This document shows positions 44,267 through 56,899 of a stretch of 64,000 nt of DNA, one piece after another. The notes beneath the pieces were generated by a model, which ran no database searches, was not told the DNA's origin, and saw nothing but the letters and a program-made list of their open reading frames with translations. Source of the DNA: Blastocatellia bacterium (GTDB taxonomy: Bacteria > Acidobacteriota > Blastocatellia > UBA7656). Every line of letters begins with the position of its first letter. Positions within the stretch are counted from its first letter, which is position 1. The position numbers and the translations under genes are program-made. The DNA lies in assembly GCA_046565505.1 (NCBI GenBank), contig JBKHYJ010000015.1, positions 13,600 to 77,599 of the forward strand, in the 5' to 3' direction.

Positions 44267-46942
44267 TCAGACGGCCCTCCCGGCCGCCACGTCCATCCTG
44301 ATGTTATCATCCCTAAGCGTCGGCACGGGTGCCGCGTCGTAGTGCTTGAGCAGCTCCAATATCGGCTCGAGCTTGTCATAAAATACGACGACGATCTCGC
44401 CCTCATCCATGCTCCGAATCGCGTATTCGATGGCCTCCGTTTCATTAAGCACGATGGAGCATTCGCGCTCGGGCGCTTCGCCCTTGACCGCCTCGCATAG
44501 CAGCCCGGCGACCTCCCCCTTGGCTCGGCCGCGCAGGTCCTTGTCTTCCTTAATGATGATGCGGTGGAGGCCCTTTGCCGCCACCTGGCCCGCCTGCCTG
44601 ATGATGGAGTCCGCCCTGTCGCCGGGCACGCCTATCACGCCCGTGACTTTTCGCCCGCGCCAGAGCGACGCCATGCGACAGACGGATTTAAACGCGTCGG
44701 CGTTGTGGCCGTAGTCCAGCATGAGGTGGCCGGGGCCCACGCGGAAGACGTTGGCCCTGCCGGGGTTCTGCGCGTCGTTCCTGAAGCCCGCGATTGCGGA
44801 AGCCGCCTGCTTTCTTGTCACGCCGTAGGCGCGGCTGGCCGCCATCGCCGCGAGCACGTTCGCGACCTGAAATTCGGCCGTGCCCTGCATCGTCACGGGA
44901 ACGTCCGACACCTGGATGATCCTGTGCTCCGCCCTGTGCGCCGACTCTATGATCCAGCCATTCTTAACGAAATATGCGGTGCCGCCCGCCGCCGTGTGCC
45001 TCTTAATCAAGAGGTGATTATTGCGCGTCGAAAAATAGACCACATGTTTTTTGATGGCGTTAACGCGGGGGTCTTCGGCCAGCCGCGCGAGGCGTTCGTC
45101 GTCGGCGTTGAGCACCAGCGTCCCGCCTTCTCTCACGCGCTCGGCCACGAGCGACTTTATGCGCACCAGGTCGTCCACGGATTTGATCCCGTCCTGCCCT
45201 ATGTGGTCCGGCTGTACGTTGGTCATCACGGATACGTCCGACCAGTCGTAGCCGAGCCCCCTGCGCGCGATGCCTCCGCGCGCGGTCTCAAGCACGGCCA
45301 CCTCGACGGCCGGGTCGCACAGAATCGTCCTCGCCGAGTGCGGGCCGGTCGTGTCGCCTTTAACGACGCGCTCCCCGGCGATGTATATGCCATCGGTGGT
45401 CGTCACCCCGACCGCGCGCCCCGACTCGGCTATGACATGAGCGATCATGCGGGTCACGGTCGTCTTGCCGTTCGTGCCCGTTATCGAAATGATGGGGATT
45501 CTCGCGGGCTCGCCCGGCGGGTATAGCATGTCCACGATGGCGGCGGCCACGTCGCGGCTGCGCCCTTCGCTCGGGTAATGATGCATGCGCAGCCCCGGGG
45601 AGGCGTTGACCTCTATCACGCCGCCGCCTTCTTCCGGCGGCTCGATAATGTCTCTCAGGACCAGGTCCACGCCGCAGATGTCCAGGCCGATGACTCGCGC
45701 GACCCTCTCGCAGAGCCGCCTGACCTCCGGGTGAACGACGCCCGTAACGTCTTTGGCCGTGCCGCCCGTCGAGAGGTTTATCCCCTCCCTCAGGAACACC
45801 ACCTCTTCTTTCTTCGGGATGTGGTCCAGGCTGAGCCCCGCCTTACGCAGGTGCGCCAGCAGTATCGGGTCCGCCTTGATGCGCGTGAGCGGCTTTTCGT
45901 GCCCATCGCCGCGGCGCGGGTCTTCATTCGTAATGTCGATCAATTGCTTTACCGTGTGCCGCCCATCGCCGGTGACGTGAGCGGGAAGCCGCTCGCTGGC
46001 GGCGATCATCTCGCCGCCGACCACTACCACCCTGTAGTTCCGCCCGACGAATAATTCCTCGACCAGGACGCTCGGGGATATCTCGCGCGCGATCCTGTAG
46101 GCCTGGGCCACTTCCCCCGGCGTCGTGAGGTTGAGCGAAACGCCCTTCCCCTGGCACCCGTCGAGCGGCTTCACGACGACGGGTGCGCCGAGAATTCCCA
46201 GGGCCCGTAACGCCTCGGCCTCCGACCCGGCCACCATGCCGCGCGGGACCGGGATCGAAGCTGCCTCCAGAATGGACTTGGTCAATTCCTTGTTCCCGGC
46301 TATCTCCATCGCGATTGCGCTCGTCTGCTCTGACATGGCCGCCTGTATGTACTTGCGGTTCTTCCCGTAGCCGAGTTGCACGAGGCTGTCGCCGTTGACG
46401 CGGACCCACGGGATGCCGCGCCGCGCGGCGGCGTCTACAATCGCTTTCGTGGTCGGGCCGAACTCCGTCCTGGCGACGATGCGGCGGGCCTCTTCCACTT
46501 TTTCGTCGAGCGCGAACGGCTCGCCCTTTATGACGGCTTCGACGAGCCTGACGGCGGCCTCAAGGAGGTGGCGCGTGCCTTTCTCCGCCTCGTACTCCAC
46601 GACGACGTTATAGCAGCAGGGCTCGTCGGCCTCACTGGTCCTGCTGTGACGCGCGGCGATACCCGCGCGGCCGGCCATCTCCACCGCGACATGCTCGACG
46701 ACATGGCCCACGTGCGTGCCTCCGTTGAGCAGCGCGACGAAGCCGCCCGGCTCGCCCGTGTCGCACCGGTGGTCGGCGAGGCCCGGCAGCAGGTCGAGCA
46801 GGCGCGCGACGAACCCATCAATCTCGTGGCTCTGTCTTTCGCACAGGTCGCCGAGGCAGAGCCGCATCACGAGCGCGGGTTTATGACTGTAGATATTCGG
46901 GCCGGCCAGCGTCCGCATCCTTTCGATCCTCATCGCGATCAC
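44267..46942 (-). CDS. cphA: cyanophycin synthetase
   Basis: 891 aa. An N-terminal ATP-grasp domain and a C-terminal Mur-ligase domain (ISITGTNGKTT). Long stretches closely resemble cyanobacterial CphA (MRIERMRTLAGPNIYS..., VLETARGGI..., DYGHNADA...). Confidence 0.9.
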   Translation of the reverse strand: MIAMRIERMRTLAGPNIYSHKPALVMRLCLGDLCERQSHEIDGFVARLLDLLPGLADHRCDTGEPGGFVALLNGGTHVGHVVEHVAVEMAGRAGIAARHSRTSEADEPCCYNVVVEYEAEKGTRHLLEAAVRLVEAVIKGEPFALDEKVEEARRIVARTEFGPTTKAIVDAAARRGIPWVRVNGDSLVQLGYGKNRKYIQAAMSEQTSAIAMEIAGNKELTKSILEAASIPVPRGMVAGSEAEALRALGILGAPVVVKPLDGCQGKGVSLNLTTPGEVAQAYRIAREISPSVLVEELFVGRNYRVVVVGGEMIAASERLPAHVTGDGRHTVKQLIDITNEDPRRGDGHEKPLTRIKADPILLAHLRKAGLSLDHIPKKEEVVFLREGINLSTGGTAKDVTGVVHPEVRRLCERVARVIGLDICGVDLVLRDIIEPPEEGGGVIEVNASPGLRMHHYPSEGRSRDVAAAIVDMLYPPGEPARIPIISITGTNGKTTVTRMIAHVIAESGRAVGVTTTDGIYIAGERVVKGDTTGPHSARTILCDPAVEVAVLETARGGIARRGLGYDWSDVSVMTNVQPDHIGQDGIKSVDDLVRIKSLVAERVREGGTLVLNADDERLARLAEDPRVNAIKKHVVYFSTRNNHLLIKRHTAAGGTAYFVKNGWIIESAHRAEHRIIQVSDVPVTMQGTAEFQVANVLAAMAASRAYGVTRKQAASAIAGFRNDAQNPGRANVFRVGPGHLMLDYGHNADAFKSVCRMASLWRGRKVTGVIGVPGDRADSIIRQAGQVAAKGLHRIIIKEDKDLRGRAKGEVAGLLCEAVKGEAPERECSIVLNETEAIEYAIRSMDEGEIVVVFYDKLEPILELLKHYDAAPVPTLRDDNIRMDVAAGRAV

Positions 46943-47811
46943 CTCTTCTTTGGCTGCCTCCGCGCCTTCTTCGCCTTGGAGGGCTTGTCGTCGGTGGGGG
47001 ATTCTTCGGTTGCGATAGGCCTCCGGGTATTCAGGTCGAACCGGGACCCGGCCGGCAGGACGTGGACCTTCACGTCGAACAGGGCGAGAGAGCCGCCCTC
47101 TTCGAGGTCGGGTAAATTCGTATGCGAGATGGCTCCCGCATCTATGACGGTGACCGCGCCCTCGCCGATCACGTCGAAGTGGCTGTCGGTGATGACCAGG
47201 GCCGTGTTCTCGTCAATGCCGAGCCCGAGGTCCTGCGGGAAGTGAGCCACGCCTGTCAGCAGGCGCCCGAGGCGGCCTCGCTGCGAGAAGTGTGTGTCGA
47301 TGATCGTCCCGATCAGGAAGTCCATGCCGGGCCCGATCTCGACGCGGCCGAAGCGCGGGGTCTCGTCGCGGTCCCCGCTGATTATCATTGAATTGCCCAT
47401 CATAGAGGCCCCGGCGCTGGTCCCCGCGACGACGACCCCCTTTTGGAATTTCCGAAAAAGCGACTGGTGCAGCCTGCTGCCACCGAGCAGCGCCGTGATG
47501 TGTAGCTGGTCGCCGCCGGTGAAGAATATCCCCGTCGCGTCCTCGACCGCTTTGATGCCCGCCTCCGACTGCGCGTCCTCTCTTTTGGACACGTCTACGA
47601 TTCGTACGTCATCTACCCCGAGCTTCTTGAACGCTTCGGTATATTCGCGGCCTAGCTCTTCGACAAGGTTCGTGGCGACCGTCATGACGACGATCCTGGC
47701 TTTCGGCCCCTTCGCAAGTCGGAGGAATTCTTTGAGAATCACGCAGTCGTTCTCCCTGTCTTCCGCGCCGCCTATGGCTATTAACTTTCCGTCAGTCCGT
47801 ATCAGTTCCAT
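46939..47811 (-). CDS. cphB: cyanophycinase (S51 peptidase)
   Basis: LIAIGGAEDRE and the catalytic Ser region AGTSAGASMMG. Its stop overlaps the cphA start by 4 nt. Confidence 0.85.
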   Translation of the reverse strand: MELIRTDGKLIAIGGAEDRENDCVILKEFLRLAKGPKARIVVMTVATNLVEELGREYTEAFKKLGVDDVRIVDVSKREDAQSEAGIKAVEDATGIFFTGGDQLHITALLGGSRLHQSLFRKFQKGVVVAGTSAGASMMGNSMIISGDRDETPRFGRVEIGPGMDFLIGTIIDTHFSQRGRLGRLLTGVAHFPQDLGLGIDENTALVITDSHFDVIGEGAVTVIDAGAISHTNLPDLEEGGSLALFDVKVHVLPAGSRFDLNTRRPIATEESPTDDKPSKAKKARRQPKKR

Positions 47812-47914
47812 ACCGATCCGATGCTCCTGTTGTCGCCCGCCCGCGCCTCACCCCCTGCGGGCTCCCGAGTCATTAAGAGCGCCCTTGCCACCGCTCTCTA
47901 TGCTTCTATCTATC

Positions 47915-47936
47915 CAGGTTGATTTCGCAGGTTGAT
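47915..47936. promoter_or_regulatory. direct repeat CAGGTTGAT x2 (13-bp register) upstream of cphB
   Basis: Two exact 9-bp copies about 100-125 nt upstream of the cphB start codon, inside the cphB/iadA divergent spacer. Confidence 0.3.
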
Positions 47937-48803
47937 GCCGCAGACGGTTCCGATGAATGTGAGTCTTGATCGTGCGGGGCCAAATATGTCTAGCGCCTGG
48001 GCCATGCAGGTTCAGAAACGTCAGCTCGTCTGCAATAATTCGGCCCGCTTATTTGTAAACACAATCCGCGGATGACCGTTGATTCCCGCCTCTCTCCCCG
48101 CACGGCTATCCGTCGTCAACCGTGCAGAGGCTTGATTGATCCCCTCCTGATGTCTTTGCCAAACAACTCCTGTATGCGCATGGGCGCTAACGTAAACGGC
48201 AACTCCCGTACCAATTCCCGCGCGCGCCATGCCCTTATTCTCAAACCGGGCCGCGCGCAAAGGGCTCGCGAAAAAAATGCTGTGATTTCGCACGTTTATC
48301 ATCCGCCCGTTAGGGCGATTCGGGCGCGCCGTCGCGTTGTGAATGTGAACCTTTTTGATGTCTATGTCGAAAAGGTGCTCTCGTATGAGACGTTAAAGTC
48401 GTGGGAGCACCAGTCCCGTACGACTTCGCCTGCGCGCGTGGGGATGCGGCCTCTCGGCTGGCGCGGGGTGAGAGCGAATCGAGGGCGGTGCGTGGCACAG
48501 TTTGCCTCATCGCGTTACCATTTCGCCACTGCCCGTCCGCATGAAGCGGCCTTGCGCGCCTCCTGATGCTCATAACGAGCGGCATACTTTCTGCTCTTGG
48601 AATCGGAGTAATGCTTACCCATTGCGAGGGAGCGAGGCGTAGTATTCTTAGGCCCGCGTTATCTGAACGGTCTTCTCTGTACTTTGTCTTTCTACTTGCT
48701 GTGTTCCTCCTCTTCTTCATAGGGCCGTGGGGGCGGTTGCTCGCCCCCCGGCCCATTTTTGCGCGCCCGGCTAAGCGACGGGGTGACTGCTTAGGAGACG
48801 GAC

Positions 48804-49958
48804 ATGCTGACCTTAATCGAGAATGGCGAAATCTATGCCCCCGAGCCTCAAGGGCGGGATACGATCCTATTGGCGGATGGGAAGGTGGCAAAAATAGGCG
48901 GCGTTGACCGGCGCGCTTTGCAGCCCCTGGGGCTCGAAGTCGAGGTCATAGACGCCGCGGGCTGCGTGGTCACGCCGGGCTTCATAGACCCTCACGAACA
49001 CCTCCTCGGCGGCAGCGGCGAGAAGGGCTTCAGCACCCAGACGCCGGAGATATATTTGAGCGAGATCGTCTGCGCGGGCATAACGACGGTCGTCGGCTGT
49101 CTTGGCGTGGACACTACGATGAAGACCATGCCGGGGCTGCTCGCCAAGGCGAAGGGCTTGAAAGAAGAGGGCGTGTCCGCCTTCATATGGTCCGGGGGCT
49201 ACACTGTGCCGCCTACGACTATCATGAAGACGATCCGCGACGACATCCTGTTCATAGAAGAAGTGATAGGCGCGGGCGAGGTCGCAATCTCCGACGAGCG
49301 CTCCACGGAGCCTCGCCTGCGCGAGCTTGCCAGGCTCGTGTCGGACGCGCACGCGGGTGGCATGCTGAGCGGGAAAGCCGGCGTCACGCATTTTCACACG
49401 GGAGGGGGGAGCGAACGTCTGTCACTGCTGCGCGACCTGCTTGACGGGTACGAGATAGAGCCCGGCTGGCTTTACGCCACGCATGTCGGGCGGAGCCAAT
49501 CATTAATGGAAGAAGCGATAGGGCTCGCCCACAGAGGGTGCTTCGTCGATGTGGACACGGTCGAGGAGGACTTGCCGAAGTGGCTCGGGTTCTACCTGGA
49601 GCGGGGCGGAAACCCCGACCAGCTCACCGCCTCTTCGGACGCCTCCATCACGAGCCCGCGCAACCTGTACGAGCAGGTGCGGGCCTGCGCCGTAGGGCAT
49701 GGCTTCCCGGTCGAGCAGGTGTTGAAGCTTGTAACGTCGAACACCGCGCGGGCGTTGAGGCTGGAAAATAAGGGCAGGCTCGAAGCGGGCAAGGACGCGG
49801 ACGTGCTCGTGCTGAAGAAAGGCTCGCTTGAGGTCGTGGACGTGATCGCGGGCGGCAGGCGAATGGTCAGTCGCGGGGAGATCGCAATCACAGAGAAATT
49901 CCTGGAGGACAGCAACCGCTCCATTACGCTCAGGGGTAGGAAAACGGGGCGCGGTTGA
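48804..49958 (+). CDS. iadA: isoaspartyl (beta-aspartyl) dipeptidase, amidohydrolase superfamily
   Basis: GFIDPHEHLLGG metal-binding motif, and overall conservation to IadA across the full length. Confidence 0.85.
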   Translation: MLTLIENGEIYAPEPQGRDTILLADGKVAKIGGVDRRALQPLGLEVEVIDAAGCVVTPGFIDPHEHLLGGSGEKGFSTQTPEIYLSEIVCAGITTVVGCLGVDTTMKTMPGLLAKAKGLKEEGVSAFIWSGGYTVPPTTIMKTIRDDILFIEEVIGAGEVAISDERSTEPRLRELARLVSDAHAGGMLSGKAGVTHFHTGGGSERLSLLRDLLDGYEIEPGWLYATHVGRSQSLMEEAIGLAHRGCFVDVDTVEEDLPKWLGFYLERGGNPDQLTASSDASITSPRNLYEQVRACAVGHGFPVEQVLKLVTSNTARALRLENKGRLEAGKDADVLVLKKGSLEVVDVIAGGRRMVSRGEIAITEKFLEDSNRSITLRGRKTGRG

Positions 49959-50165: not shown

Positions 50166-50744
50166 ATGCGAACTACGGTATTGATCCTTGTGCTCCTTCT
50201 CTTGCCCCTGACCGCCGCGGCCCAGCAGACGCCTAAAGTCGAGTTATTCGGCGGCTATTCTTACTTCCGCAACGAGGGCGGCTCGGGCCTTCATGGGTGG
50301 AACGGCTCGGTCGCGGCCAACCTTAACAAGTGGTTCGGACTTGTAGCGGACGTTTCGGGCCATTACGACTCCAGGTCATTTCGGTTCACGGACGTGCGCG
50401 GCAACGTGGGCCTGTTCGATGGCAGAACTAACAGGCACACGATTCTGATCGGGCCGCGCTTCTCTTACCGCAACAGCAGCCGCTTAGTCCCATTCGCCCA
50501 TGCGCTGGTCGGGGTGACCCGCGTGCATGAAGAAACGACAAACCTCGCGACTGATTTCTCCGCAGTCTTTAGAGGGAATAATTCTGGCTTCGCGATGGTC
50601 GCGGGCGGGGGGCTGGACGTGGGAATGAGCCGAAACCTGGCCCTTCGAGTAATACAGGCCGATTACTTCGTGACTCGCATTTTCGGGACGCAACACAACA
50701 CGCGCATATCCGTAGGGCTCGTGTTCCGGCCCGGCTCAAGGTAA
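50166..50744 (+). CDS. outer-membrane beta-barrel protein (OmpW/opacity-like porin family)
   Basis: A signal peptide ending AAAQQ, alternating amphipathic beta-strands, and the C-terminal aromatic residues F-x-F/V-F. Confidence 0.7.
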   Translation: MRTTVLILVLLLLPLTAAAQQTPKVELFGGYSYFRNEGGSGLHGWNGSVAANLNKWFGLVADVSGHYDSRSFRFTDVRGNVGLFDGRTNRHTILIGPRFSYRNSSRLVPFAHALVGVTRVHEETTNLATDFSAVFRGNNSGFAMVAGGGLDVGMSRNLALRVIQADYFVTRIFGTQHNTRISVGLVFRPGSR

Positions 50745-51099
50745 GAAGGCGCTATGCGTCGCCATATCCTCATAACCCCTACGGTAATTTTCACGGCATT
50801 CGGGCGAGCACCGTCACGCCCTGCCCCTAGCCCGCGGGCCGCACGCCCGCAGGCTTTGCCTGAGGTGCTCGCCCGAATTAGTCTTGTCGCCCCGCCGCTC
50901 GACCGGGCTCCTTCGCCGACCGAGCTTTAATACCATGTTTTGAATGCGCCTGCCTCGCGGGGCCGCGGACGGCCCATTCTTCTCCGCCCCCTGTTTTATC
51001 TTTTGCCTGCCGCGGCGGGCGGAGTAATATTTCAAATCTAAAACGAGATTCGAATAGAATTCGTAAACGCTTTAGCTTCGGCCCGGCGGGCGAGGGGGT

Positions 51100-53502
51100 G
51101 TGGGGATGCGAAGATTCAGGAGCTTTCGGAACACAGTTTTTAATGCCCTGCTGGTGAGCTTCGCACTGATACCGGCTTTCAATCACTCTGTGATCTCGGC
51201 GGGCGTCCAGCGGCCGCGCGCGGATGGCCGCGCGGGCTACGGGCCTGTGATTGAAATGCTTGAGCGTTTCATCGAGCGCGAGATGGTCGATAAGCAACTA
51301 CCCGCGCTTTCGATAGCGCTCGTCGATGACCGTCAGACCGTCTGGGCGAAGGGTTTTGGCTTCGCCGACCCGAAAGATAAAACGCCCGCCACGGCCGATA
51401 CTGTTTACCGCGTGGGGTCCGTGTCGAAGCTCTTCACGGACATCGCCGTCATGCAGCTAGTGGAGCGGGGAAACCTAGACCTGGACGCGCCCGTGAGCAG
51501 GTACCTCCCGGACTTCAGCCCGCGCAACCCTTTCGGCAAGCCCGTCACGCTGAGGCAGCTAATGTCGCACCGCTCGGGCCTCGCCCGCGAATCGCCCGTG
51601 GGCAGCTATTTTGACCCGACGGAGCCTTCGCTCGCGCGCACGGTCGCGAGCCTTAATAAGACTTCCCTCGTTTACGAGCCTGAGACGCGCAGCAAGTACT
51701 CGAACGCCGCCATCGCGACGGTCGGCTACGTGCTTGAGCGCACGCAGGGGCAGCCGTTCGCCAGATACTTGAAGCGCGCCGTGCTCGACCCGCTCGGCCT
51801 CGCGCACAGCAGTTTCGAGCCTTCGCCGGAGGTCAATGGCAAGCTCGCGAAAGCTTTCATGTGGACCCTCGATGGCCGCGTCTTCGACGCGCCGACCTTT
51901 CAGCTCGGCATCAGCCCGGCCGGGAGCATGTACACTACAGTCACGGACCTGGCGCGCTTTATGAGCGCGTTGTTTGCCGGGGGCGAAGGCGCGAACGGGC
52001 GGATTCTCAATCCGGCTACGCTCGAGCAGATGTGGACGCCGCAGTACGCGGCACGAGGCCAGAAGGCCGGCTTCGGCATAGGCTTTCATGTGGCGGAGGT
52101 TGACGGGCACCGACAGGTCGGGCACGGCGGGGCCATCTATGGGTTTGCCACTTCGCTTGAGGCCCTGACCGAAGACAAGCTCGGCGTCGTGGTCGTCACC
52201 ACGAAAGACTCCGCCAACGCGGTGACGAATCGAATAGCCGGCATAGCTTTGAAAGCCATGCTCGCGGCCCGCGAAGGCAAGGCCGTCGCGCCGCCGGAAA
52301 TCAATCCGCCCGTAGAGCCCGCACTCGCGCGCAGGGTCGGCGGGCGGTACGTGAGAGGCGATAAAGGAATCGACCTGATCGAAAGCGGCGGCGGGCTCTC
52401 CGCGCTCGCGATGGGCGGCGGCGAGCCCGTGCGGCTTCGGGCGGCCGGGGCCGCGCTCATAGCCGACGACCTGCTCGGCTACGGCGCGACGATTACTGTG
52501 CGCGGCGACGAGCTGGTCGCCGGCGGCGAGACGTTCAAGCGAGTCCCCGTCGTCAAGCCCGCGCCCGCGCCGAAGCAGTTTGAAGGGCTGATAGGCGAGT
52601 ACGGATGGGACCACGACATTCTGTATATACTTGAGAAGGACGGGAAGCTCTGGGCGCTGATAGAGTGGTTTGAATTCGACCCTCTCGAACAAGTTTCGGA
52701 GGATGTCTTCAGGTTCCCGAGCCGCGGGCTTTACGATGGCGAGCGGCTCGTTTTCAAGCGAGACGCGAGAGGCCGCGCGACGGAGGTCGAGGCGGCGAAC
52801 GTCGTATTCAAGCGCCGTGCGGTGGGGCCGGAGGATGGCGCGCCGCAACTACGAGTCGCGCCCCTGCGGCCCGTCAGCCTGTTGTTAAAGGAAGCCCTGG
52901 CGGCCTCGCCGCCGCGAGAGAGCGGCGATTTCCGCGAGCCGGAGCTTGTGGAACTCGCGCGGCTCGACCCGACCATCAAGCTGGATATTCGTTACGCGAC
53001 CACGAATAATTTCCTGGGCAGCGCCTTCTACTCGGAGGCGCGCGCCTTCATGCAGAGGCCGGCGGCGGAGGCGCTCGTTCGCGCGCACCGCAAATTGAGA
53101 GGGCAAGGATTCGGGCTGCTCGTACACGACGCCTACAGGCCGTGGTACGTGACGAAGGTTTTCTGGGACGCGACGCCGGACGACAAGAAGGTTTTTGTGG
53201 CGGACCCCGCGAAAGGCTCGCGGCACAACCGCGGCGCGGCGGTCGACCTCACGCTTTACGATTTGAAGACGGGCTCGCCCGTCGAGATGGTTAGCACTTA
53301 CGACGAGACGACCGACCGCGCCTACCCGGATTACCCGGGCGGCACGTCGCTGCAACGGTGGCACAGGAAACTGTTGCGCGACGCGATGGAGGCCGAAGGG
53401 TTCACGGTGTATGAAGCCGAGTGGTGGCACTTCGATTACAACGACTGGCGCAAGTACCGAATCGGCAACGTGCCCTTCGATAAGATAAGAGCCGCTAGGT
53501 AA
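51100..53502 (+). CDS. fusion protein: serine beta-lactamase/DD-peptidase-like (PF00144) domain - middle domain - C-terminal VanX-type D-Ala-D-Ala dipeptidase (M15D) domain
   Basis: The N-terminal domain carries S-x-x-K (SVSKLF), Y-S-N and HGG motifs. The C-terminal 200 aa carry the VanX zinc and catalytic motifs SRHNRGAAVDLTL and EWWHFDY, plus LDIRYATTNNF. Signal peptide. Confidence 0.8.
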   Translation: MGMRRFRSFRNTVFNALLVSFALIPAFNHSVISAGVQRPRADGRAGYGPVIEMLERFIEREMVDKQLPALSIALVDDRQTVWAKGFGFADPKDKTPATADTVYRVGSVSKLFTDIAVMQLVERGNLDLDAPVSRYLPDFSPRNPFGKPVTLRQLMSHRSGLARESPVGSYFDPTEPSLARTVASLNKTSLVYEPETRSKYSNAAIATVGYVLERTQGQPFARYLKRAVLDPLGLAHSSFEPSPEVNGKLAKAFMWTLDGRVFDAPTFQLGISPAGSMYTTVTDLARFMSALFAGGEGANGRILNPATLEQMWTPQYAARGQKAGFGIGFHVAEVDGHRQVGHGGAIYGFATSLEALTEDKLGVVVVTTKDSANAVTNRIAGIALKAMLAAREGKAVAPPEINPPVEPALARRVGGRYVRGDKGIDLIESGGGLSALAMGGGEPVRLRAAGAALIADDLLGYGATITVRGDELVAGGETFKRVPVVKPAPAPKQFEGLIGEYGWDHDILYILEKDGKLWALIEWFEFDPLEQVSEDVFRFPSRGLYDGERLVFKRDARGRATEVEAANVVFKRRAVGPEDGAPQLRVAPLRPVSLLLKEALAASPPRESGDFREPELVELARLDPTIKLDIRYATTNNFLGSAFYSEARAFMQRPAAEALVRAHRKLRGQGFGLLVHDAYRPWYVTKVFWDATPDDKKVFVADPAKGSRHNRGAAVDLTLYDLKTGSPVEMVSTYDETTDRAYPDYPGGTSLQRWHRKLLRDAMEAEGFTVYEAEWWHFDYNDWRKYRIGNVPFDKIRAAR

Positions 53503-53599
53503 CCGCCGCGCAGGGCTCGCGCGCCTTCCGCGGCCGCGCGACCCGGCGGCGGGTTTTTGCGGCGCGGCATGTAGATCATGTTTTAGAGGAGAAGTTACG

Positions 53600-56500
53600 A
53601 TGAAGAGAGCGGTGTTGTGGACGATCACGTTCTTATTGGCCCTGGCGGGGGCGAGCCACGGGCAGACGGGAAAGCTTCTGCTGTTGCAAAAGCCCACGTT
53701 GAGCAAGACTCACGTAGCGTTCGCTTACGCGGGGGACTTGTGGATAGTGAGTAGGGAAGGCGGCGACGCCGCGCGCTTGACGACGGGAACGGGCGTCGAA
53801 ACCGACCCGATCTTTTCGCCCGACGGCAGCCTGATAGCCTTCACGGGGGAGTACGATGGCAACGTAGATGTTTACGTCGTCGCGGCCGGCGGCGGCATAC
53901 CGAAGCGATTGACTTATCACCCCGGCGCCGACGTCGCGGTCGGCTGGACGGCCGACGCCAAGCAGGTGCTATTCCGCTCGGGCCGCAACAGCCCGTTCCC
54001 CGTCCCGCGCCTCTTCACCATGCCGGTCGATGGAGGGTTCCCCGCGGAGGTGCCTCTGCCGATGGCCGACAGCGGGAGCTATTCGCCCGACGGGACGCGG
54101 CTCGCCTACGTGCCGACCACGCAGTGGCAGCAGGCGTGGAAGCGTTACCGCGGCGGGCAGACGAGCCCCATCTGGCTGGCTAACCTTTCGGATTCGAGCG
54201 TCGAAAAGATACCGCGCGAGAACTCGAATGATTCATACCCGATGTGGGTCGGCGACCGCGTCTACTTCCTCTCCGACCGCAATGGGCCGACGACGCTGTT
54301 CGGTTACGACATCGCGACGAAAAAAGTCACGCAGTTGATCCGCAACGAGGGCCTGGACATCAAGTCGGCGTCGGCGGGACCGGGCGCGATCGTCTACGAG
54401 CAGTTCGGCTCGCTTCATTTATACGATCTGAATTCGGGGAAGGCGCGGAGGCTGGACGTACGCATAGCCGGCGACATGCCTGGCGTCCGCCCGCGGTTCG
54501 AGAAGGTGGCGGCCCGCATAGCGTCGGTGGGCCTTTCGCCCACGGGCGCGCGGACGGTATTCGAGGCGCGCGGCGAAATCTTGACGGTCCCTGCGGAGAA
54601 GGGCAGCGCGCGCAACCTAACAAACACCTCCGGGGTGGCGGAGCGCGACCCCGCCTGGTCGCCCGACGGCAAATGGATAGCTTATTTCTCCGACGAGTCC
54701 GGCGAGTACGAGCTACACCTTCGAGACCAGACAGGGATGGGCAACGTGCGAAAGATCAACCTGGGCAACCCGCCCTCGTTCTATTACTCGCCCACCTGGT
54801 CGCCCGACAGCAAAAAGATCGCTTACACGGACAAGCGGTTGAACCTCTGGTACGTCGACCTGGATAAGGGCGCGCCCGTGAAAGTAGACACCACAGCCTA
54901 CGAGAACCCCTGGCGGGTCTTCGACCCCGTGTGGTCGCCCGACAGCCGTTGGCTGGCCTACACGAAGCAGCTCGATAATCACCTGGGCGCGGTCTTCCTC
55001 TACTCGCCCGAAACGGGCAAGAGCCACCAGATTACGGATGGCCTGAGCGACGCGCGCTTCGCGACTTTTGATAAGGGCGGAAAATACCTCTACTTCACGG
55101 CGAGCACGGACATAGGCCCCACCACGGGGTGGCTAGACATGTCCAGCTTCAATCACCCGGTCACGCGCAGCGTCTACGTGGTCGTGCTCAGGAAAGACTT
55201 GCCCTCCCCGCTCGCGCCCGAAAGCGACGAGGAGAAGGTGCAGGAGGCGCAAAAGGCTGCGGACGCCGCCGCACAGCCGGGGGCGGGCGGGGATAAGCCC
55301 GCCGAGAAGAAAGAGCCCGTCACGGTGACGATTGACCTGGATAACATCGGGCAGCGCGTACTCGCTCTGCCGATCCCCGCGCGGAACTACACGGGGATGG
55401 AAGCGGGGAAGGCGGGCATACTTTACCTGCTCGAAGTCGCGCCGGGCGTGGGCGACCTGTTCGGCGGCGGCCCCCAGACGCTACACAAGTTCGAGCTTGA
55501 GAAGCGCAAGATGGATAAAGTCATTGAAGGCATCAACGCCTTTCTACTCTCGGCCAACGGCGAGAAGATGCTCTACCGCCAGGGGCAGGGGTGGTTCATC
55601 GCGGCGACCGCCCAGCCCATTCAGCCCGGCCAGGGCGCGCTCAAGCTCGACGAGATGGAGGTCTACGTGGACCCGCGCGCCGAATGGGATCAGATGTACC
55701 GTGAGGTGTGGCGCATACAGCGGGATTTCATCTACGACCCTGGCCTCCACGGCCTCGACCTCAAGTCCGCGCAGGCGAAGTACAAGCCATACGTGGAGGC
55801 GATAGCTCATCGCGCGGACCTCAACTACCTGTTCACGGAGATGCTCGGCGAGCTTACGGTCGGGCACATGTTCATAGGCGGGGGTGACGCGCCCGCGCCC
55901 AGGAGGGTGAAGGGCGGTTTGCTGGGGGCCGATTTCCGGGCGGAGAACGGGAGGTATCGCTTCGCACGAATCTACAATGGCGAGAACTGGAACCCCGGCC
56001 TGCGCGCGCCCCTGACGCAGCCGGGCGTGAACGTCCAGGCGGGCGAATACCTCCTCGCGGTAAACGGCCGCGAGGTGCGGTCGGCGGACAACGTCTACAG
56101 CTTCTTTGAAGGGACGGCGGGCAAGTCCGTTGTGATAAGAGTCGGCCCGGACCCGGGCGGGGCGGGGGCGCGCGAGGTGACGGTGGTGCCGGTCGAGAGT
56201 GAAACGGGGCTGCGAAATCTCGCCTGGGTCGAAGACAACCGCCGAAAGGTGGACCAGATGAGCGGCGGCCGGCTGGCTTACGTCTACCTGCCTAACACGG
56301 CCGGCGAAGGGTACACGAATTTCAACCGCTATTACTTCGCGCAGATCAACAAAGAGGGGGCCGTCATCGACGAGCGATTCAATGGCGGCGGGACGGCGGC
56401 CGATTACATCATCGATTATATGCGGCGGCCGCTGATGAATTACTGGCAGACGCGCGAGGGCAAGACCTTCACGACCCCCGTCGGCTCGATCTTCGGGCCG

Positions 56501-56899
56501 AAAGCCATGATCATCAACGAGTACGCGGGCAGCGGCGGCGACGCCTTGCCGTGGTACTTCAGAAAGGCGGGCGTCGGGCCGCTGGTAGGCAAGCGCACCT
56601 GGGGGGGGCTGGTCGGCATATATGATTACCCGCAGTTGATAGACGGCGGGTTTGTGACCGCGCCGCGCGTGGCGTTCTGGAGCCCGAAAGGCGACTGGGA
56701 TGTCGAGAATCATGGCGTCGCGCCCGACATCGAAGTCGAGTACGACCCGCAGGCATGGCGGGCGGGCCGCGACCCCCAGCTTGAAAAAGCTGTCGAAGTC
56801 GTTATGGACGCGCTCAAGAAGAACCCGCTGCCCAGGCACGAAAGGCCGGCTTACCCGAATTACCACAACCCGAACCGCGCCTCGACATCGGGCCGCTGA
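53600..56899 (+). CDS. tricorn protease homolog (S41 family) with TolB-like beta-propellers and PDZ domain
   Basis: 1099 aa with a signal peptide. Its N-terminus (VAFAYAGDLWIVSREGGDARLTTG...DPIFSPDGSLIAFTGEYDGN) is typical of tricorn. The C-terminal S41 catalytic region is AGSGGDALPW. Confidence 0.85.
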   Translation: MKRAVLWTITFLLALAGASHGQTGKLLLLQKPTLSKTHVAFAYAGDLWIVSREGGDAARLTTGTGVETDPIFSPDGSLIAFTGEYDGNVDVYVVAAGGGIPKRLTYHPGADVAVGWTADAKQVLFRSGRNSPFPVPRLFTMPVDGGFPAEVPLPMADSGSYSPDGTRLAYVPTTQWQQAWKRYRGGQTSPIWLANLSDSSVEKIPRENSNDSYPMWVGDRVYFLSDRNGPTTLFGYDIATKKVTQLIRNEGLDIKSASAGPGAIVYEQFGSLHLYDLNSGKARRLDVRIAGDMPGVRPRFEKVAARIASVGLSPTGARTVFEARGEILTVPAEKGSARNLTNTSGVAERDPAWSPDGKWIAYFSDESGEYELHLRDQTGMGNVRKINLGNPPSFYYSPTWSPDSKKIAYTDKRLNLWYVDLDKGAPVKVDTTAYENPWRVFDPVWSPDSRWLAYTKQLDNHLGAVFLYSPETGKSHQITDGLSDARFATFDKGGKYLYFTASTDIGPTTGWLDMSSFNHPVTRSVYVVVLRKDLPSPLAPESDEEKVQEAQKAADAAAQPGAGGDKPAEKKEPVTVTIDLDNIGQRVLALPIPARNYTGMEAGKAGILYLLEVAPGVGDLFGGGPQTLHKFELEKRKMDKVIEGINAFLLSANGEKMLYRQGQGWFIAATAQPIQPGQGALKLDEMEVYVDPRAEWDQMYREVWRIQRDFIYDPGLHGLDLKSAQAKYKPYVEAIAHRADLNYLFTEMLGELTVGHMFIGGGDAPAPRRVKGGLLGADFRAENGRYRFARIYNGENWNPGLRAPLTQPGVNVQAGEYLLAVNGREVRSADNVYSFFEGTAGKSVVIRVGPDPGGAGAREVTVVPVESETGLRNLAWVEDNRRKVDQMSGGRLAYVYLPNTAGEGYTNFNRYYFAQINKEGAVIDERFNGGGTAADYIIDYMRRPLMNYWQTREGKTFTTPVGSIFGPKAMIINEYAGSGGDALPWYFRKAGVGPLVGKRTWGGLVGIYDYPQLIDGGFVTAPRVAFWSPKGDWDVENHGVAPDIEVEYDPQAWRAGRDPQLEKAVEVVMDALKKNPLPRHERPAYPNYHNPNRASTSGR

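Follow-up and report, generated by a model that had tools for sequence, protein, structure and literature searches.

A probably exported fusion of an S12 serine peptidase and a DdpX-like dipeptidase in Blastocatellia, a candidate for D-peptide scavenging

Results

The fusion gene and its product

The window analysed here is a stretch of 64,000 nucleotides from the genome of a Blastocatellia bacterium (contig JBKHYJ010000015.1). At positions 51106–53502 it encodes a single protein in which a serine peptidase domain of family S12 is followed by two β-barrel domains and a zinc D-Ala-D-Ala dipeptidase domain of subfamily M15D that resembles DdpX. The catalytic residues of both enzymes are intact, the architecture recurs in several phyla, and the protein is probably exported. 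We propose that it serves the nutritional scavenging of cell-wall-type D-peptides. The gene and its product comprise the following features.

51092–51098, forward strand: Shine-Dalgarno-like GAGGGGG, read from the sequence, 7 nucleotides 5' of ATG 51106
51106–53502, forward strand: coding sequence of the fusion, 798 amino acids; ATG start likely true, stop codon TAA at 53500–53502
51106–51201, forward strand: probable Sec-type signal peptide or N-terminal anchor, MRRFRSFRNTVFNALLVSFALIPAFNHSVISA; heuristic assignment, hydrophobic maximum 2.43
51262–52221, forward strand: S12-family serine peptidase domain (PF00144, penicillin-recognising fold), Pfam E 1.7e-73
51418–51429, forward strand: motif I, S105-V-S-K108, with nucleophile Ser and general-base Lys; coordinates verified
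51697–51705, forward strand: motif II, Y198-S-N200; coordinates verified
52123–52131, forward strand: motif III, H340-G-G342; coordinates verified
52318–52545, forward strand: β-barrel domain 1, lipocalin-like, residues ~405–480, eight-stranded in the AlphaFold2 (AF2) model of the excised region
52594–52815, forward strand: β-barrel domain 2, residues ~497–570, GEYGWDH...ALIEWF...VVFKRR, in the same model
52936–53445, forward strand: M15D zinc D-Ala-D-Ala dipeptidase domain (PF01427), DdpX-like, Pfam E 1.3e-34
53137–53139, forward strand: R678 in AYRPW, equivalent to VanX Arg71 in the alignment with structure 1r44
53218–53250, forward strand: SRHNRGAAVDL with zinc ligands H707 and D714 (VanX H116 and D123, 1r44 alignment)
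53419–53433, forward strand: EWWHF with catalytic base E772 and zinc ligand H775 (VanX E181 and H184, 1r44 alignment)

Residues are numbered from ATG 51106, and the Pfam coordinates below refer to the 800-residue form. The open reading frame (ORF) runs from 51100 to 53502 on the forward strand, encodes 800 residues counted from GTG 51100 and contains no internal stop codon. ATG 51106 is the more likely start, to which the GTG would add two residues. A public gene call on an independent metagenome contig gives an identical 798-residue product, and the nearest homologue (P0001) is also 798 residues long.

The original prediction, made from the sequence alone, had described a fusion of a serine β-lactamase/DD-peptidase-like domain with a VanX-type domain. 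Both domains were recovered in a Pfam scan well above the gathering cut-off of 27 bits, PF00144 at residues 55–374 (248.1 bits) and PF01427 at residues 613–782 (120.1 bits). The motifs SVSK, YSN, HGG, SRHNRGAAVDL and EWWHF are present at the positions listed and are invariant or nearly so in 58 homologues of the window protein (alignment A1). A loss of catalytic residues was looked for in both halves of the window protein and all residues are present; a stop codon or ribosome-binding site near residue 550 was sought as well, and none was found.

To assess recurrence, 185,579 species genomes were scanned, one genome per species, and at least 577 stretches encode a relative. The best 80 of these were analysed in detail; together with the window they make up the 81 loci counted below. 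All 80 match the query at full length, from about residue 45 to about residue 795, with identities of 57–76%. By record title, they belong to Acidobacteriota (Blastocatellia/Pyrinomonadaceae, Terriglobia and Thermoanaerobaculia), Gemmatimonadota, Planctomycetota (Gemmataceae), Verrucomicrobiota, Ignavibacteria/Bacteroidota and a few others, and all are metagenome-assembled genomes, some of them complete chromosomes. The 120 best matches in a collection of 5.8 billion proteins all carry both Pfam domains; nearly all are about 800 residues long and 67–94% identical to the window protein. All eleven catalytic residues are kept in 73 of the 81 sequences, and in most of the exceptions a paralogue or a truncated ORF had been picked.

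An assembly or frameshift error could in principle have joined two separate genes, and the family, which is GC-rich, is not free of such errors, as the visibly frameshifted relatives P0152, P0204 and P0250 show. In the window, however, the frame is uninterrupted and lacks an internal start context, the junction falls within domains that are well conserved and modelled with confidence, and the identical architecture is found in hundreds of independent assemblies, complete genomes among them. Because the full-length architecture recurs so widely, we reject an artefact, the chance of which we regard as negligible. The recurrence in several phyla argues that the fusion architecture is real and under selection.

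Several variants of the architecture were seen. Apparently unfused proteins with the S12 domain and two barrels (~575–590 residues) were seen, and several of them resemble truncations at contig ends. Longer family members of 1000–1530 residues (P0132, P0138, P0139, P0147, P0005 and P0006; loci L026, L051, L074 and L079) carry extra modules, namely a neutral ceramidase-like domain, a polyhydroxybutyrate (PHB)-depolymerase-type esterase, a second S12 domain, DUF3471 or a weak, below-cut-off DsbD_N-like N-terminus. Three metagenome-assembled genomes labelled Steroidobacteraceae, Proteobacteria and Clostridia (L010, L015 and L017) contain copies that are 70–72% identical to the Blastocatellia-type protein; these could reflect mis-binning or recent horizontal transfer. 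Database labels for the fusion are automatic, either "serine hydrolase" or a double name derived from COG.

The N-terminal half resembles a three-domain D-aminopeptidase

The S12 domain is well defined, with predicted local distance difference test (pLDDT) values mostly above 85 in the full-length AF2 model. In alignment A1, S105 is invariant, K108 is conserved in at least 90% of sequences, and motifs II and III are conserved. Motif III is of the HxG type, as in the R61 DD-peptidase, D-aminopeptidase (DAP) and Pab87. Sequence searches of the PDB matched the S12 domain to Pab87 (2qmi, E 3e-42, residues 53–423), IS11 (7spn), Lip3 (9sn1) and R61 (1cef). The scores against the NCBIfam models all fell below their cut-offs: AmpH (PRK10662) reached 98.2 bits (cut-off 266), class C β-lactamase (NF033085) 77.9 bits (cut-off 415) and DAP (PRK13128) 69.3 bits (cut-off 443).

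Between the two catalytic domains lie ~235 residues (~375–610), which the original prediction had taken for a linker of roughly 180 residues. Structure prediction and Foldseek searches instead point to two folded β-barrel domains. Sequence searches gave little indication of this. Nothing in the region rose above threshold in the Pfam scan, where barrel 1 had no match at all and DUF7586 (PF24491) over the second half scored 15.4 bits, below its cut-off of 27 (24.7 bits in the relative P0265). A PDB search of the region by phmmer and with a 34-sequence profile returned chance-level matches only, such as a picornavirus polymerase (E 0.0075). The full-length AF2 model has a mean pLDDT of 75, with barrel 2 at low confidence (36–64). 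When the excised region was re-modelled with a more diverse alignment, the mean pLDDT was 89.6 and the model showed, in order, a connecting helix, barrel 1, barrel 2 and a helix that connects to the M15 domain.

A Foldseek search of the PDB with this model gave a single match below 1e-3, the barrel domains B and C of DAP from Ochrobactrum anthropi (1EI5, E 7.6e-8, 221 columns). The next-best matches were C-terminal barrels of other S12 enzymes, Lip3 (9sn1), SurE (6ksu), IS11 (7spn) and Ulm16 (8fek). Barrel 1 is the counterpart of DAP domain B and also of the C-terminal domain of Pab87, IS11 and SurE; barrel 2 corresponds to DAP domain C, with a weak resemblance to DUF7586. With the full-length model, the alignment to 1ei5 extends over 563 columns, and phmmer aligned residues 54–561 colinearly with residues 9–501 of DAP, so that the fold searches and the sequence alignment both return the three-domain architecture of DAP. 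Because the Foldseek match, the colinear phmmer alignment and the full-length model alignment agree, the N-terminal ~570 residues are, on the predicted structure, a DAP-like three-domain S12 module. DAP (EC 3.4.11.19; MEROPS S12) likewise combines an S12 domain (SxxK/YxN/HGG) with two eight-stranded β-barrels, and a loop of its domain C occludes the active site; it is, however, only ~20% identical to the window protein and has no M15 domain.

The middle region is present in 531 clusters at 50% identity in a search of 1.84 billion cluster representatives. The full-length proteins among the matches listed (~730–830 residues) carry it at residues ~350–610. From this count and position, the middle module appears to be largely confined to the fusion architecture.

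Among proteins of solved structure, Pab87 of Pyrococcus abyssi (2QMI) is nearest to the S12 domain in sequence. Its own S12 domain is joined by a helix to a lipocalin-like barrel, and the protein forms a cubic D4 octamer, a CubicO trait. D-aminopeptidase and DD-carboxypeptidase activities on muropeptides have been measured for Pab87, and the enzyme has been suggested to process D-peptides from the environment. It differs from the window protein in having one barrel only and no dipeptidase domain. The Joint Genome Institute (JGI) name "CubicO group peptidase" led us to consider membership of the Pab87 family, which we rejected, as the defining motifs YAEAF/L, FFYLN and C-terminal ERY (PMC2651629) are missing. 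The positions aligned to the first two read RESPVGSYFD and SKYSN in the window protein, and a terminal ERY is ruled out by the 370 residues that follow the barrel. The JGI label appears to be a generic orthologous-group name.

S12 enzymes span DD-peptidases, D-aminopeptidases, DL-peptidases, esterases and peptide cyclases. The name DD-carboxypeptidase, which the original prediction had given to the N-terminal half, is therefore an assumption and not a finding, and the three-domain layout matches DAP.

The C-terminal half resembles DdpX more closely than VanX

The C-terminal domain matches the VanX structure 1r44 at E 1e-21 and shares with it the fold and the residues R71, H116, D123, E181 and H184, which correspond to R678, H707, D714, E772 and H775. 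All five are invariant in alignment A1. The best-named NCBIfam match is DdpX (PRK10178), whose model is colinear with the domain over 171 of 188 positions and scores 141.9 bits, close to but below the equivalog cut-off of 176. The VanX model (NF033115) scores 90.1 bits, far from its cut-off of 320, and the ~18-residue insertion that precedes the SxHxxGxAxD motif in VanX is missing. By these sequence comparisons the domain is a member of M15D of the DdpX-like kind, not a VanX orthologue. DdpX of Escherichia coli and PcgL of Salmonella (MEROPS M15D) are single-domain proteins of ~190–250 residues, whereas here the M15 domain is tethered to an S12 module of ~570 residues.

The complete VanX catalytic signature speaks for a part in glycopeptide resistance or sensing, as suggested from the sequence, or in immunity. 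The relative scores of the DdpX and VanX models speak against this, as does the genetic context: neither vanH nor a vanA/ddl-type ligase nor vanRS was found among the window neighbours scanned or among the gene families that recur in at least 4 of the 81 loci. An exported enzyme would, moreover, be unable to act on the cytoplasmic pool of D-Ala-D-Ala precursors. The relatives belong to diderm phyla, which are largely shielded from glycopeptides by their outer membrane. We consider a VanX-type resistance function very improbable. The fusion is itself a likely source of "vanX-like" matches in soil metagenomes that have nothing to do with resistance and arise at permissive thresholds; under the strict NCBI VanX model it is excluded.

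The protein is probably exported

The N-terminus carries four Arg residues in the n-region and a hydrophobic core, without a lipobox Cys, and a putative cleavage site follows I-S-A, with G as the next residue. Although the N-termini of the 58 homologues show no sequence conservation, 55 of them combine a basic n-region with a hydrophobic segment of 12 residues or more behind it. The AF2 model shows the N-terminal segment as a helix of low pLDDT followed by a disordered stretch. From this pattern, which agrees with the secretion that had been predicted, the catalytic domains should lie outside the cytoplasm, whether the N-terminal segment is cleaved or acts as an anchor. Several products of neighbouring genes at related loci also start with obvious signal peptides.

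The same heuristic finds a probable N-terminal export signal of the type seen in PcgL. As PMC3760250 summarises the findings of Hilbert et al. (1999), the dipeptidase PcgL cleaves D-Ala-D-Ala in the periplasm and enables cells to grow with this dipeptide as their only source of carbon. The contrast with cytoplasmic VanX that had been drawn from the sequence is thus less novel than implied, because an M15D dipeptidase in the periplasm already existed in Salmonella. The window protein adds a fused example to the few known exported VanX-type enzymes.

Divergent relatives have lost the serine site and kept the zinc site

In the window protein both active sites are intact. Forty divergent representatives that are 38–56% identical to it (alignment A2) show a different pattern. 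Both zinc-binding His residues, the Asp and the catalytic Glu are kept in every intact member that covers the M15 region; in P0215, Cys replaces the substrate-binding Arg678. Three representatives that had seemed to lack the M15 site turned out to be frameshifted translations. About nine of the forty, roughly a quarter, lack the catalytic Ser, Lys or Tyr of the S12 site and retain a full M15 site (among them P0159, P0236, P0256, P0258, P0261, P0263, P0265 and P0267). The alignment around the lost site is clean, with YRIGEVSGLLT, FRVGAYSELLT and YRIGGLTQAFT in place of YRVGSVSKLFT.

These variants were found again in independent assemblies. One of them is encoded in the complete genome of a cultured planctomycete, Telmatocola sphagniphila, and has Gly in place of the S12 Ser (WP_213498054.1). 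A rough neighbour-joining tree, built from the middle and M15 regions only, places the members without a serine site here and there among intact ones, a pattern that suggests the site was lost several times independently. The family thus offers a natural experiment on which half holds the essential function: because the M15 site is kept while S12 residues are repeatedly lost, the zinc site is the conserved catalytic core, and the S12 scaffold seems to owe its persistence to more than its own catalytic activity.

Taken further, this pattern could mean that the family is an M15 enzyme at heart, in which the S12 domain and the barrels mainly recognise or gate D-Ala-D-Ala or stem peptides and deliver peptidyl-D-Ala-D-Ala to the zinc site. 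The S12 domain would then work as an enzyme in some lineages and be a pseudoenzyme in others, and the "dipeptidase" would act outside the cytoplasm on tethered or larger substrates, with carboxypeptidase or endopeptidase chemistry like that of VanXY. We hold this to be a tentative and rather unlikely description of the family. If true, it would reveal a new mode of substrate hand-off between the penicillin-binding and VanX folds, and the protein might serve as a marker enzyme for the turnover of D-peptides from microbial necromass in soil.

Genes that recur beside the fusion

Recurrent partners were identified by unbiased clustering of the flanking ORFs at the 81 loci. The commonest neighbour, at 27 of 81 loci and often adjoining on the same strand, is a 567-residue amidohydrolase homologous to D-aminoacylase and N-acyl-D-glutamate deacylase (1M7J, E 5e-82; 3GIP, E 2.5e-69). 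It is followed by an APC amino-acid permease (20/81), a TonB-type/CarboxypepD_reg outer-membrane protein (17/81), an RpiR/SIS regulator (13/81), an S15 peptidase (12/81), and an M19 dipeptidase and an M55 D-aminopeptidase (5/81 each). Additional S12 paralogues occur in many loci. Taken with the APC permease and the S15, M19 and M55 peptidases, the D-aminoacylase homologue suggests that Acidobacteriota and Gemmatimonadota have loosely organised gene neighbourhoods for "D-peptide utilisation". Of the genes around the fusion in the window itself, only a tricorn-type protease recurs, at 10 of 81 loci, mostly those of the closest Blastocatellia-type relatives. An example of the commonest partner and the recurring window neighbour are located as follows.

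L005:2659–4362: exported D-aminoacylase homologue at an example locus, with a PDB match to 1M7J
53600–56899, forward strand: tricorn-type protease, 1099 amino acids, with a signal peptide, PD40 propellers, Tricorn_C1, Tricorn PDZ and Peptidase_S41 domains; 97 bp 3' of the fusion gene on the same strand

The neighbourhoods bear on whether the enzyme is instead a housekeeping protein that remodels the cell's own peptidoglycan, tuning cross-linking without feeding the cell. The S12 half would then act like AmpH or a low-molecular-weight penicillin-binding protein, trimming pentapeptides or cutting cross-links, and the M15 half would clear D-Ala-D-Ala from the periplasm. Such a role would suit a protein exported into the peptidoglycan compartment; AmpH, a DD-carboxypeptidase/endopeptidase, is among the best NCBIfam matches of the N-terminal domain, and the R61 DD-peptidase is a clear structural relative. 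The AmpH score is, however, far under its cut-off, and the recurrent neighbours are catabolic enzymes and transporters: no linkage to mur/dcw or recycling genes was found in the window or at the 80 related loci. A patchy, habitat-linked spread over at least 577 of the species genomes scanned would also be unusual for a core wall enzyme. Own-wall remodelling is accordingly an unlikely primary role.

A further possibility is defence or antagonism, in which the enzyme would inactivate non-ribosomal peptide antibiotics or lipopeptides that contain D-residues, as TriF, BogQ and Lip3 do, or attack the D-Ala-D-Ala termini of competitors. Such roles have been taken on by S12 enzymes repeatedly, and the full-length model aligns over 623 columns (E 3.4e-25, Foldseek) with the lipopeptide DL-peptidase Lip3 (9sn1), a signal-peptide-bearing S12 enzyme with extra β-rich domains. 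Lip3 and Lip7 of Paenibacillus are indeed similar to the fusion in being secreted and in having β-rich C-terminal domains that shape the substrate cavity. But their C-terminal domain is unrelated in sequence and reportedly restricted to Paenibacillus relatives, they lack an M15 domain and act on lipopeptides, and motif III of Lip3 has Lys where the fusion has His. Toxin, immunity and biosynthetic genes do not recur near the fusion at the related loci, and the constant feature of the fusion family is its D-Ala-D-Ala site. We judge a defensive function to be quite improbable, more so than own-wall remodelling.

Two groups of neighbours stand apart from these partners. At L006, L018 and L059, S12 paralogues of ~800–850 residues lie beside the fusion and have C-terminal regions without the M15 catalytic pattern, an indication that such clusters contain a broader range of long multi-domain S12 proteins. 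A family of 279-residue proteins without a match in Pfam, NCBIfam or the PDB occurs at 11 of 81 loci, within ~4 kb of the fusion and mostly no more than ~1.2 kb away (for example L050:1291–2130, reverse strand).

Discussion

From the domains, residues, fold and neighbourhoods described above, we infer substrates, a division of labour between the two sites and a physiological role for the fusion. The protein would be a bifunctional hydrolase of D-alanine-containing peptides, placed by its export signal in the periplasm or on the surface of cells whose phyla are diderm. With a pocket shaped by the barrels as in DAP and Pab87, the S12 module would trim D-amino-acid oligopeptides, for example fragments of peptidoglycan stem peptides, as a D-stereospecific exopeptidase or a DD-peptidase. 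Free D-Ala-D-Ala, whose bond is beyond the reach of ordinary peptidases, would fall to the M15 module. Their joint output, free D-Ala and short L-peptides, could be taken up as carbon and nitrogen, and the D-peptides might originate in the turnover of the cell itself or in dead neighbouring cells. The division of labour may also differ: the S12 site could release D-Ala-D-Ala or (D-Ala)n, or the two sites could act in parallel on different D-Ala substrates.

We favour this scavenging role because the anatomy of an exported S12 and DdpX-like enzyme and the catabolic neighbours in other genomes both point to it, and we assign it a probability of about 0.6. The protein is built wholly from known folds, and the role has precedents in PcgL and DdpX, for which scavenging and not resistance has likewise been proposed. 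The papers found on ddpX deal with the nitrogen-starvation/NtrC and RpoS regulons, and this link to starvation fits a scavenging function.

Several points weigh against the proposal. A linear pathway from the S12 to the M15 site is not obvious, because a DD-carboxypeptidase frees single D-Ala, which is no substrate for a VanX-type enzyme, and the scheme would need an extracytoplasmic source of free D-Ala-D-Ala. Of the coordinated remodelling or scavenging that had originally been suggested, scavenging is the part best supported, by neighbourhoods elsewhere. The sequence does not reveal the specificity of the S12 site, for which the AmpH, DAP and class C β-lactamase equivalog models all fail. 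Export was assigned by a heuristic, not by a trained predictor. Apart from the tricorn-type protease, the window is without catabolic partner genes, so that the neighbourhood argument is borrowed from relatives, and among these no single neighbour is present at more than a third of the loci. In the literature we found no paper that describes or tests the fusion.

The peptides of soil peptidoglycan form a large pool of organic nitrogen that is resistant to ordinary proteases. Little is known about their use by the dominant, poorly cultivated soil phyla, chiefly Acidobacteriota, Gemmatimonadota, Planctomycetota and Verrucomicrobiota. The fusion family provides a concrete and testable candidate for the extracellular mineralisation of D-peptides.

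Other features of the window

The flanks of the fusion gene hold further genes and signals on its upstream side and a possible terminator downstream.

44267–46942, reverse strand: cyanophycin synthetase, 891 amino acids, Cyanophycin_syn and Mur ligase domains
46939–47811, reverse strand: cyanophycinase (Peptidase_S51), upstream of the fusion in the window
48804–49958, forward strand: isoaspartyl/β-aspartyl dipeptidase, TIGR01975 at 317 bits, just below the cut-off of 331
50166–50744, forward strand: outer-membrane protein (OMP)-like ORF, 192 amino acids, with a signal peptide and outer-membrane β-barrel-like sequence (GGYSYF...)
51031–51060, forward strand: weak match to a sigma-70-like promoter, TTCAAA-18-TAGAAT, ~45 bp 5' of the ATG, from a consensus scan
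53533–53560, forward strand: weak terminator-like GC hairpin followed by GGGTTTTTGC, from a consensus scan, in the 97-bp gap before the tricorn-type gene

The promoter consensus scan of the region gave two matches where 0.8 were expected. Taken as consensus matches only, the promoter-like element and the hairpin with its T-run suggest that the fusion gene is its own transcription unit.

Cyanophycin synthetase, cyanophycinase and the isoaspartyl dipeptidase form a compact cluster for cyanophycin metabolism (44267–49958). Neither this cluster nor the OMP-like ORF lies beside the fusion at any of the 80 related loci. An operon logic based on the cyanophycin neighbours was therefore rejected, and we treat the cluster as unrelated to the fusion.

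The OMP-like ORF has no Pfam or NCBIfam match. In one relative of the fusion (P0245), an OMP_b-brl domain stands in place of the first half of the S12 domain, possibly through a deletion or a fusion with an OMP-like upstream gene. A perfect 15-nucleotide inverted repeat, ATTCGGGCGAGCACC at 50798–50812 and GGTGCTCGCCCGAAT at 50864–50878, with a spacer of 51 nucleotides, lies in the 360 bp that separate the fusion gene from the OMP-like ORF.

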